Source: Escherichia virus TH22
Reading direction: 5' to 3' (one strand)
DNA length: 64,000 nucleotides
Sequence record: MT446396.1
The position numbers and the translations under genes were made by a program. The notes below the pieces were generated by a model. The model was not told the DNA's origin and ran no database searches. It was given only the letters and a program-made list of their open reading frames with translations. Shown piece after piece: positions 22,089-46,212 of this stretch; the stretch's first letter is position 1, and each line of letters opens with the position of its first letter.

Positions 22089-22205
22089 AACCATGGTATA
22101 CCGCTCGATGGGAAACCGTCGAGCCAGAGGAACCTGTTTACAACGATTCCGAAATAGATTATAATGAACCTTCAAACAATGATTTAATCGATATGGAGTT
22201 TGGAT

Positions 22206-22379
22206 ATGAGTACCAAAATTGAAATTGGCCGTCATAAAGGCCGCCTGATTGAAAAATCACTTTATGAACTGTCGGATTCCCGTAAGTTACCTGATGAAGA
22301 ATCTGCTTTAATTTTTGCCGCGGCGGATTATATCCATTGGCTTGAAGCTCAACTTCGCTTTGCTGATGAGGCCTTCTGA
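22206..22379 (+). CDS. hypothetical protein
   Basis: 57-aa ORF, stop overlaps next start. Confidence 0.3.
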   Translation: MSTKIEIGRHKGRLIEKSLYELSDSRKLPDEESALIFAAADYIHWLEAQLRFADEAF

Positions 22380-22681
22380 TGAATTTATTTGAATTTGAAG
22401 GTAAAACTGTTCGTATTACTGAAGAAGATGTTGACCATTATGTTGACTGGCCTGAATTAAACGGCAATCGCGGTTTTGAGTCAGGCGAGCTCTGTGAAGG
22501 TGCTGAAGTTAAAATCTTGAAGGTGGAGATTTCTCCATGGGGCAATCCTGAAATCATTGGCGTAACTGCTATCGAATTCAATGGTAAGGTATACGAATAC
22601 ACTAAAGAAATGTTTGAAGATACTAAAGCTTCATTCTGGTGTTTTTGGACTAACGATGATAATGAATTTGAGGTCGCATGA
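22379..22681 (+). CDS. hypothetical protein
   Basis: ATGA overlap chain. Confidence 0.4.
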   Translation: MNLFEFEGKTVRITEEDVDHYVDWPELNGNRGFESGELCEGAEVKILKVEISPWGNPEIIGVTAIEFNGKVYEYTKEMFEDTKASFWCFWTNDDNEFEVA

Positions 22682-22854
22682 AAACTGCATTAGTCTATAC
22701 CGAAAAGTTAAATGGTGTCAAGGTCTGGAAACTTCTTATTAAAGGAAGTCCTACCGACCAGTTTATGGCCACCTGTGTAGGATTGTATACTCGTCCTACT
22801 AAAAAGATGATTCGTCAATTTAAACGGTTACACCGCGCGTTTTATAAGATTTAA
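22678..22854 (+). CDS. hypothetical small basic protein (RPTK-x-IRQ tail family)
   Basis: 58 aa; C-terminus RPTKKMIRQFKRLHR shared with ORFs at 44599 and 45991. Confidence 0.35.
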   Translation: MKTALVYTEKLNGVKVWKLLIKGSPTDQFMATCVGLYTRPTKKMIRQFKRLHRAFYKI

Positions 22855-44076: not shown

Positions 44077-44394
44077 ATGAAAACTATTGATTGCAAGGCG
44101 GAATACAAAGTTTATTATCATGGCTCAAGCTCTAATGCTGGAATCCAAAATATGCTTTGCCCTCCTGATGCAACTGGTGTTCTGTCAGAAGTTGGGCGTA
44201 AGAAAAATTTAGGGCGTGTGTTTTTTACTGAAGATATTGGTTTGGCGCGTATCTATGCAGGAAGAGCAGCTCGCTCATATGGAGGAGAACCCCGTCTTTA
44301 TCGTGTGATTGCACCTGTTGACGTGGTTTGTTTAAATGATACTAAAGGCGCAACCGTTTATCACGCCGCCTGGGCCTTCTGTGAGGAAATCTAA
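44077..44394 (+). CDS. hypothetical protein
   Basis: Terminator, promoter and conserved leader upstream. Confidence 0.45.
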   Translation: MKTIDCKAEYKVYYHGSSSNAGIQNMLCPPDATGVLSEVGRKKNLGRVFFTEDIGLARIYAGRAARSYGGEPRLYRVIAPVDVVCLNDTKGATVYHAAWAFCEEI

Positions 44395-44598
44395 ATGTAT
44401 AAATTAGAGAACGTAGTGTTTATTGGTTGGTTTGAAAATGGTAATATGTTTACCAAAGAAACCGCGCTGGATGTTAGTGACCAAAATATGATTGAATGGG
44501 TTACAGTGCAGTATGCAGAAGTGAATAATGCGCTGGTTAAAGCCTTTGTTAATGACAATAAAGTTTTTGAATATGATGCCCGCATTGAGGAAATTTAA
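44395..44598 (+). CDS. dmd: Dmd antitoxin (discriminator of mRNA degradation)
   Basis: VVFIGWFENGNMFTKE...VQYAEVNNALVKAFVNDNKVFEYD aligns with T4 Dmd. Confidence 0.85.
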   Translation: MYKLENVVFIGWFENGNMFTKETALDVSDQNMIEWVTVQYAEVNNALVKAFVNDNKVFEYDARIEEI

Positions 44599-44838
44599 AT
44601 GAATATCACATTAATGAAACCTACCCCTAGTTCTTTTTGGAATAAATCTTTTGGTAAGCATAATATGTTTATCCAACGCACCGTAAGCAGCTGGGAACTA
44701 GTTCTTTCGGAAGACCATGGCGGTTATGAACAAGAATACGTAGAGTTCTTCGAATTTCCTGTGAAACCTACCAAGCGTCAGATTCGTCAGACAAAACGCA
44801 AATTCCGTAAAATTTATCTGGAAGATGCATTAAAATAG
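44599..44838 (+). CDS. hypothetical protein (RPTK-x-IRQ tail family)
   Basis: C-terminal KPTKRQIRQTKRKFRK. Confidence 0.45.
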   Translation: MNITLMKPTPSSFWNKSFGKHNMFIQRTVSSWELVLSEDHGGYEQEYVEFFEFPVKPTKRQIRQTKRKFRKIYLEDALK

Positions 44839-44895
44839 TGTACAACAAAGGGATAATGCTGTATATTATCCATATCAACTACTGAGGAGATTGAA
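44838..44895 (+). promoter_or_regulatory. early promoter plus conserved leader upstream of sp
   Basis: GTGTACAAC -35, TATATT -10, leader ATCAACTACTGAGGAG. Confidence 0.5.
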
Positions 44896-45189
44896 ATGAA
44901 AAAGTTATTAATCGCGGCAATTCTTACCGTAGCATCATGTGGTACAGCTCCAGTTACTGCTGGACTTGATAAAAACCTTTGTGAGTGGTCTATGACTGCG
45001 GACCAAACTGATGTTGAAACTCAAATTCGCGCTGACATCATGAATATTACTAAACGTGACCGCCCTGATATGGTTAAAGAAGTATCTGACCAATTGACTT
45101 CTGGTGACGTTATGCAGTATAACTATGTTCTGTATTGCGATGCTTCATTTGACAATAGCAAAATTGTTCAATGGGTTACAGGTGAATAA
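44896..45189 (+). CDS. sp: Spackle periplasmic protein
   Basis: 97 aa with signal peptide; DKNLCEWSMTADQTDVETQIRADIMNITKRDRP...VMQYNYVLYCD matches T4 Sp. Confidence 0.85.
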   Translation: MKKLLIAAILTVASCGTAPVTAGLDKNLCEWSMTADQTDVETQIRADIMNITKRDRPDMVKEVSDQLTSGDVMQYNYVLYCDASFDNSKIVQWVTGE

Positions 45190-45190
45190 A

Positions 45191-45628
45191 ATGATTAACA
45201 GAAATTTGGTTATCAAAAAACTTCGTTGTAAAAATCCAAATGCGCAGGCATACAGGGTGTTTTGGAGCGACGAAATTCAATATCTGGGTTATTTTCTTGT
45301 TGATAGTGATGATAGAATTACGTTTGCTCATAAACTTCTTAACAAAGAATTAAACCATTGGAAAGAACTTATTGCAGTCAAGTCTAAATTATTTTCGCGC
45401 AATACAATGCACCAATTGGTTTATTTTTTCGCTGATGGTATTCCTGACAAGGTTGAGTTTGAAGGGTTTGAATTTAAAGACATCAACCCTGACAATGAAT
45501 TGAATGACAGTATTGTTAATATGGGTATCCCTGGCAAGTACATCAAAAACAGTCTTTTGAAAATTCTGGAAAATCCTGTTTATTCAGTTGACGACCAGAT
45601 TTTTAATGCCTTCATGAAGCGAGATTAG
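45191..45628 (+). CDS. hypothetical protein
   Basis: ATG 45191; C-terminal 11 aa DDQIFNAFMKR identical to next gene. Confidence 0.45.
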   Translation: MINRNLVIKKLRCKNPNAQAYRVFWSDEIQYLGYFLVDSDDRITFAHKLLNKELNHWKELIAVKSKLFSRNTMHQLVYFFADGIPDKVEFEGFEFKDINPDNELNDSIVNMGIPGKYIKNSLLKILENPVYSVDDQIFNAFMKRD

Positions 45629-45629
45629 T

Positions 45630-45989
45630 ATGAGTTATTATAATTTTCTGAATTTTGAACTGGTGAGCAATAATAATGGTAATGCTCACTATGAATTTCG
45701 TGAGCCCCGTTATAATCAGGCGATTGGTTATATCATCGTTAAAGATGGTGTTATCATAAAGGCTCGTTCGTTTATGACAATGAATGGGCCTTGTGAAGAT
45801 AATCGTGGTTATCCATTTGATAAAAAGAACGTACGCGATTGTGCAGTATGGATAACCGGAAACCCTGAAATTGGGGTCATGATATCTACTGAAGCAAATG
45901 ACATTCTGGAAGGGGCTTGGGTTAAAGCTCAAGAACCGCCTACTGATATTGATGACCAGATTTTTAATGCCTTCATGAAGCGAGGTTAA
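45630..45989 (+). CDS. hypothetical protein
   Basis: C-terminal DDQIFNAFMKRG, identical tail to upstream gene. Confidence 0.45.
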   Translation: MSYYNFLNFELVSNNNGNAHYEFREPRYNQAIGYIIVKDGVIIKARSFMTMNGPCEDNRGYPFDKKNVRDCAVWITGNPEIGVMISTEANDILEGAWVKAQEPPTDIDDQIFNAFMKRG

Positions 45990-45990
45990 T

Positions 45991-46212
45991 ATGTTTGTTT
46001 TGACCCAATTCTCTAAAGCAATATATAGTTACTCTTGTCAGTGGGAAGTCTTTATTGATACTCCGTCTCCCAAGTATGGAGTTTTTGGACGAGTAACTAC
46101 TCAAGCTTATGTTGCACGACCGACCAAACGTCAGATTCGTAAACTTAAAAAGGCACATCGTCAATTGATTAAAAGAAGGGAACAATATGAGTGCAATGTG
46201 TACGGGCTCTAA
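45991..46212 (+). CDS. hypothetical protein (RPTK-x-IRQ tail family)
   Basis: C-terminal RPTKRQIRKLKKAHRQLIKRR. Confidence 0.4.
   Translation: MFVLTQFSKAIYSYSCQWEVFIDTPSPKYGVFGRVTTQAYVARPTKRQIRKLKKAHRQLIKRREQYECNVYGL

Follow-up and report, generated by a model that had tools for sequence, protein, structure and literature searches.

Three small open reading frames (ORFs A, B and C) in the 64,000-nt stretch of phage DNA analysed here (the window) are three diverged paralogues of one small-protein family, TifA (DUF7279), and the basic motif that they share is a defined functional element of this family. The motif very probably marks the start of a basic RNA-binding C-terminal helix. This reading is supported by the DUF7279 matches of the three proteins, the dmd-sp synteny of one of them, the conserved residues, the structure models of ORFs B and C, and published mutants. 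No new explanation of the motif is required, since experiments on a known phage counter-defence protein have already defined it as the RNA-binding element of that protein. The TifA family, the motif and its function have already been published, and two of the three proteins are almost verbatim in print. The one small new point is the presence of three TifA paralogues in a single genome. Our literature search found no paper on TifA paralogues within one genome, and a search for "DUF7279" returned nothing.

The phage is a T4-like coliphage of the Tevenvirinae, whose nearest records stand under Gaprivervirus, with Dhakavirus relatives. The window was about 90-96% identical to the JS98/JS10-type T4-like coliphages, and 100% identical to phages UPEC07 and TH55 over the two stretches compared.

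Table 1. The three TifA-family ORFs, their motifs and the neighbouring genes (window coordinates).
Feature	Position	Strand	Basis or remark
ORF A, 79 aa, tifA (gene 61.4) orthologue	44599-44838	+	DUF7279, phrog_2375, synteny
ORF B, 73 aa, second TifA paralogue	45991-46212	+	DUF7279, phrog_3272
ORF C, 58 aa, third TifA paralogue (RB69 ORF087c / JS98 orf76 type)	22678-22854	+	DUF7279, phrog_3272
Motif KPTKRQIRQ in ORF A	44764-44790	+	equivalents of TifA K55, R56 and R59 plus the Pro-Thr helix cap
Motif RPTKRQIRK in ORF B	46117-46143	+	P44, T45, K46, R47, R50
Motif RPTKKMIRQ in ORF C	22792-22818	+	P40, T41, K42, K43, R46
dmd, antitoxin against RnlA/LsoA	44395-44598	+	Pfam Dmd, E=1.6e-20; upstream partner of tifA as in T4
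sp (spackle)	44896-45189	+	Pfam T4_Spackle, E=3.6e-43; downstream of ORF A as in T4
Two ORFs in the T4 adfA (61.2) position	45191-45628, 45630-45989	+	only the last ~15 residues common with AdfA

The regular expression [RK]PTK[RK]xIR[QK] was scanned against all six frames of the window. Exactly three matches were found, all on the + strand and all inside ORFs A, B and C, while only 8e-5 occurrences were expected by chance from residue frequencies. The repetition of the motif, noticed in a preliminary description made from the DNA letters, is thus real and far above chance; the three ORFs of that description, their coordinates and the quoted C-terminal sequences were all correct.

The same description regarded the three ORFs as unrelated, and this does not hold. 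The Pfam family PF23945 (DUF7279) has a profile of 53 positions and a curated cut-off of 24.5 bits. ORF A (E=2.4e-19, 69.4 bits), ORF B (E=3.3e-20, 72.2 bits) and ORF C (E=3.8e-16, 59.2 bits) all scored above this cut-off, with matches spanning profile positions 1/2 to 52/53. T4 TifA (gp61.4) matched the same profile with E=2.3e-20 and 72.7 bits, and RB69 ORF087c with E=8.5e-16. Pairwise BLASTP among the full proteins aligned only the tail of 18-20 residues (E=2e-5 to 4e-6), and no match was found by pairwise BLASTP between the N-terminal parts. Because the similarity at this level is confined to the tail, the proteins could be taken for unrelated by eye, and full-length homology could be established only by a profile test on sequences without the tail. 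Everything from the motif onwards was therefore deleted, and the N-terminal parts were rescanned against Pfam. The tail-less A, B and C still matched DUF7279 (E=6.5e-5, 2.8e-6 and 2.4e-4, respectively; 21-28 bits; positions 1/2 to 31/35) and no other Pfam family. This result indicates that the homology includes the β-sheet part of the proteins.

Consistently, ORF A fell into the PHROGs family phrog_2375 (E=1.8e-34), and ORFs B (E=4.7e-26) and C (E=4.7e-33) into phrog_3272, with cross-matches between the two families. In an alignment with T4 TifA, the residues P53, T54, K55, I58, R59, K62 and R66 were invariant in A, B, C and RB69 ORF087c, and position 56 was occupied by Arg in A and B and by Lys in C. 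When 45 family clusters were aligned, only W, P, T, K, R and R remained as nearly invariant columns. The overall identity to T4 TifA was 45-50% for A, 37% for B and 29% for C. No NCBIfam model was found for the TifA/DUF7279 family, and its Pfam name remains a DUF although the founder TifA has a published function.

The preliminary description had also suggested that the tail could be another mobile 3' module. The movement of a short basic tail between unrelated small genes, either as a 3' DNA module or by domain shuffling, would agree with the BLASTP alignments of the tail alone and with the lack of a match between the N-terminal parts. Such modules do occur in this region, where a real nucleotide-level 3' module is present on the neighbouring ORFs in the adfA position. 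However, the tail-less N-terminal parts match DUF7279 and nothing else, and B and C have the same predicted topology. At the nucleotide level, the longest exact match between any two of the three genes was 9-12 nt (12 nt for A versus B), and an alignment of the three 3' ends revealed no shared DNA module. The region of motif and helix showed 53-61% nucleotide identity among A, B and C, with a third-position identity of 47-59% and a pS of 0.5-0.7, which means that synonymous sites are near saturation. These values suggest that the three genes are old paralogues kept alike by protein-level selection. The tail-less profile matches plus the nucleotide divergence refute the mobile module, which we consider very improbable. 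Nothing was found in support of the localisation signal that had been offered as another explanation. All three genes look expressed and under selection, and each is preceded by a Shine-Dalgarno sequence and joined to its upstream gene by a tight junction in the style of T4.

The 12-nt match between A and B is an exact direct repeat, CGTCAGATTCGT, located at 44776-44787 and 46129-46140 in the same orientation and 1.35 kb apart. In T4, segments are amplified or deleted by way of 2-10 bp microhomologies (PMC9391042), so CGTCAGATTCGT could, as a speculation, mediate duplication or loss of the block formed by sp and the adfA-position ORFs.

A different kind of repeat was observed in the two adfA-position ORFs. 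These ORFs are otherwise dissimilar, and both end with DDQIFNAFMKR(D/G), as does T4 AdfA (gp61.2). Their ends (about 45593-45628 and 45954-45989) contain a 31-nt exact DNA repeat, GACCAGATTTTTAATGCCTTCATGAAGCGAG. Between the second copy and T4 61.2, the conserved stretch extends further and takes in the GAGG Shine-Dalgarno sequence together with the stop codon and the start codon that follows. Unlike the TifA motif, this repeat is a genuine nucleotide-level 3' junction module.

TifA was modelled as a three-stranded sheet packed on a basic C-terminal helix, in which a Pro-Thr pair conserved across homologues caps the helix (Guegler et al. 2023 NAR, PMC10853763). The AlphaFold (AF2) model of ORF B (pLDDT 75) has strands at residues 2-9, 16-25 and 32-40 and a helix at 46-71, and that of ORF C (pLDDT 91.8) has strands at 2-9, 15-22 and 31-36 and a helix at 42-54. 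Both models thus have the topology of three strands and a C-terminal helix published for TifA (PMC10853763), and in both the helix begins directly after the Pro-Thr of the motif. The motif had been called a tail; it is indeed shared, but it is not strictly terminal, as it opens a C-terminal helix of 13-26 residues. A PDB sequence search and a fold search found no solved relative of the TifA family. In a BFVD fold search all matches were uncharacterised proteins of phages, and most of them came from T4-like or other enterobacterial phages.

The function of this helix has been studied in the founder protein. Gene 61.4 was renamed tifA, for ToxN inhibitory factor A, in work on T4 escape from the type III toxin-antitoxin system toxIN, where the escape arose by amplification of dmd-tifA and TifA co-precipitated with the RNase ToxN (Srikant et al. 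2022 eLife, PMC9391042). The KD of TifA(RB69) for RNA is 0.36-2.3 μM, and the in vitro affinity of TifA for ssDNA and dsDNA is similar (PMC10853763). The substitutions P53A/T54A and K55A/R56A/R59A in TifA abolished RNA binding, ToxN neutralisation and ToxN co-precipitation (PMC10853763). In the published model, TifA sequesters ToxN on an abundant RNA, for example 16S rRNA (PMC10853763). RNA binding via the basic helix has been shown for TifA(RB69) and TifA(T4) only (PMC10853763). The preliminary idea that the shared sequence binds RNA agrees with the TifA(RB69) experiments, and A, B and C retain the corresponding residues. A, B and C share with TifA the family, the Pro-Thr cap and the following Lys, Arg/Lys and Arg.

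A working mechanism can be drawn from these data. The Pro-Thr pair caps the helix, and the side chains of the next Lys, Arg/Lys and Arg make up its basic face. It is with this face that the TifA of T4 and of RB69 binds RNA, and RNA binding is a prerequisite for binding ToxN; with ToxN trapped on an abundant RNA such as 16S rRNA, phage transcripts are spared from cleavage. The helix is therefore the conserved RNA anchor, and the variable sheet and loop are the likely specificity surface that engages the partner. Judged from their conserved residues, A, B and C each probably bind RNA.

ORF A is the syntenic orthologue of T4 tifA. It starts one base past the dmd stop codon, behind the Shine-Dalgarno sequence GAGGAAA. 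The position directly downstream of dmd and upstream of sp, which is also that of T4 tifA, is held by ORF A only and not by B or C, which unlike T4 TifA are encoded at other loci. In tblastn, ORF A was 45% identical to T4 gp61.4 and 92% identical to JS10 gp61.4; in the multiple alignment its identity to T4 TifA was 50%. The gene order in the window is gp41, an unknown ORF, dmd, A, sp, the two adfA-position ORFs, B, two small ORFs and the gp61 primase, and the order in the same place of T4 is dmd, 61.4, sp, 61.2 (adfA), 61.1 and 61.

The region holding A and B has been proposed as an anti-TA island (PMC9391042). Like TifA, Dmd and AdfA are small early accessory proteins that are encoded in this gene block and counteract toxin-antitoxin defences, Dmd acting on RnlA/LsoA and AdfA on DarT. 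They are unlike TifA in that their sequence and fold are unrelated to it, and Dmd inhibits directly as a protein, in contrast to the RNA-dependent complex through which TifA acts. The interval between gp41 and dmd, in which T4 has no gene, contains a conserved 105-aa ORF (44077-44394) that matched phrog_2110 (E=1.3e-58) and no Pfam family. This ORF adds one more uncharacterised gene to the proposed anti-toxin region.

ORF B is located between the ORFs with the AdfA tail and the 61.1-like ORFs. In phage DK-13, no CDS is annotated at its position, and in the window it overlaps the next ORF (46187) by 26 nt, which could mean that ORF B is a chance open frame and not a gene. The probability of this is practically negligible, since ORF B matches Pfam with the E-value given above, has a GAGG Shine-Dalgarno sequence 6 nt upstream of its start, and is called and conserved in metagenomic relatives. 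In one of them (L011), the orthologue lies in the same position with 70% identity and an overall dN/dS of 0.33. For the codons of motif and helix, pN was 0.02 and pS 0.32, and for the N-terminal part pN was 0.29 and pS 0.55. ORF B is therefore under purifying selection, with a nearly frozen helix and a diverging sheet and loop. Moreover, 71 of its 73 residues are identical to "tifA vB_EcoM_005" (Table S2, PMC10853763), a protein already cloned and studied in print. The Pfam match, the Shine-Dalgarno sequence, the conservation and this published near-identical protein together refute the chance frame.

The metagenomic relative L011 gave no Dmd or DUF7279 Pfam match between gp41 and sp, yet it keeps the B-type gene downstream. 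Three ORFs of 82, 100 and 108 aa were found there between gp41 and sp (L011 1814-2837), apparently as a replacement of the dmd-tifA pair. The combination of a retained B with a region devoid of dmd-tifA matches suggests that the copies are gained and lost independently.

ORF C is far from the other two, between pinA fragments and gene 49 (endonuclease VII). It has an ATGA overlap with the upstream ORF, and a hairpin follows it downstream. ORF C was 53% identical to RB69 ORF087c and 96% identical to its JS10 orthologue. Its orthologues are the uncharacterised hypothetical proteins of the RB69 ORF087c / JS98 orf76 / RB32 ORF078c type (phrog_3272), which are members of DUF7279 and occupy the same pin-gene 49 position. 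C-type genes were found in 339 phage records, usually beside pin; T4 has no C-type gene because pin abuts gene 49 there. Unlike TifA, ORF C has a short loop and no C-terminal extension, and with its 58 aa it is the shortest form. The C type was not found in the supplementary file of PMC10853763.

Next to ORF C, the Lon inhibitor PinA is apparently split into two ORFs in swapped order (window 22200-22681). The ORF at 22200-22379 corresponds to the C-terminal part of the PinA profile (positions 88-136), and the ORF at 22379-22681 to its N-terminal part (positions 3-74). Instead of two PinA-like fragments as in the window, T4 and RB69 have one undivided pin gene.

Which partners the paralogues would engage can be narrowed by published data. 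A- and B-type proteins have already been named TifA homologues (PMC10853763); "tifA JS98" in Table S2 of that study is about 92% identical to ORF A, and the near-identical protein of ORF B has been mentioned above. Homologues from phages other than T2, T4, T6 and RB69, including the TifA of JS98 and vB_EcoM_005, neutralised none of the six ToxN homologues and no TenpN (PMC10853763). Given these negative results for near-identical proteins, an anti-ToxN role of A and B is unsupported, and their targets are not the tested ToxN or TenpN proteins. Directly after its dmd, phage vB_EcoM_005 has an A-type gene as well (L014 4119-4358), which means that the "tifA vB_EcoM_005" in print is the B-type paralogue. 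The published specificity panel thus mixes orthologues and paralogues, and this matters when the panel is read.

We infer that A, B and C may each neutralise a different RNA-directed host toxin or defence nuclease. As a tentative extension, the co-resident paralogues could form a diversified panel of RNA-dependent toxin traps, with ORF C and the pinA fragments as a second small anti-toxin islet. In such a panel each paralogue would present the same RNA-anchoring helix with a different sheet/loop surface, and would act against a different host RNase toxin or RNA-directed defence outside the tested ToxN and TenpN.

Alternatively, B, C and possibly A could be general nucleic-acid binders with a housekeeping role in infection, such as mRNA/ribosome modulation or DNA binding, and ToxN inhibition would then belong to the T4/RB69 TifA lineage only. 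This would be in line with the failure of close homologues of A and B to neutralise type III toxins (0/7), with the binding of RNA, ssDNA and dsDNA by TifA without obvious sequence specificity, and with the location of ORF C outside the dmd-61 anti-toxin region; ORF C also gave a weak sub-threshold match to the chromatin protein Cren7 (E=0.13). However, the family is patchy, T4 being without the C type and L011 being without a Dmd or DUF7279 match in the gp41-sp interval while keeping B, and such a distribution is characteristic of accessory genes with anti-defence roles, not of housekeeping functions. The variable sheet and loop beside an almost frozen helix fit a specificity surface in an arms race, and A and B lie inside the proposed anti-TA island (PMC9391042). 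We consider a housekeeping role rather unlikely for these proteins.

The copy number was determined with a family HMM over all ORFs of the complete genome of the close relative TH55 (170,389 bp). Exactly the three members A, B and C were found, with E-values of about 1e-28 to 1e-31. No fourth copy was found in TH55, where the next match had E=0.16, with the qualification that this HMM was built from close relatives and could miss a very divergent copy. Two different proteins from each of the phages EcS1 and Merlin were matched by B in the BFVD fold search, suggesting that several copies per genome may be common.

An exhaustive search of 1.84 billion representative proteins gave 49 matches at E <= 0.001. 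The short matches among them that were aligned in the cluster comparison carry the family motif. Of the longer matches, P0019, P0033 and P0043 were inspected and rejected as false positives (eukaryotic repeat or copia-like sequences). A word-indexed protein search returned 12 close relatives only.

The practical value of these results lies in annotation, since the record of one close genome lacks ORF B and others misname the features of A and B. In UPEC07, the feature at the ORF A match bears the name "DNA polymerase"; in UPEC01 and AnYang, "nucleotidyltransferase" is among the names of the features at the ORF B match.
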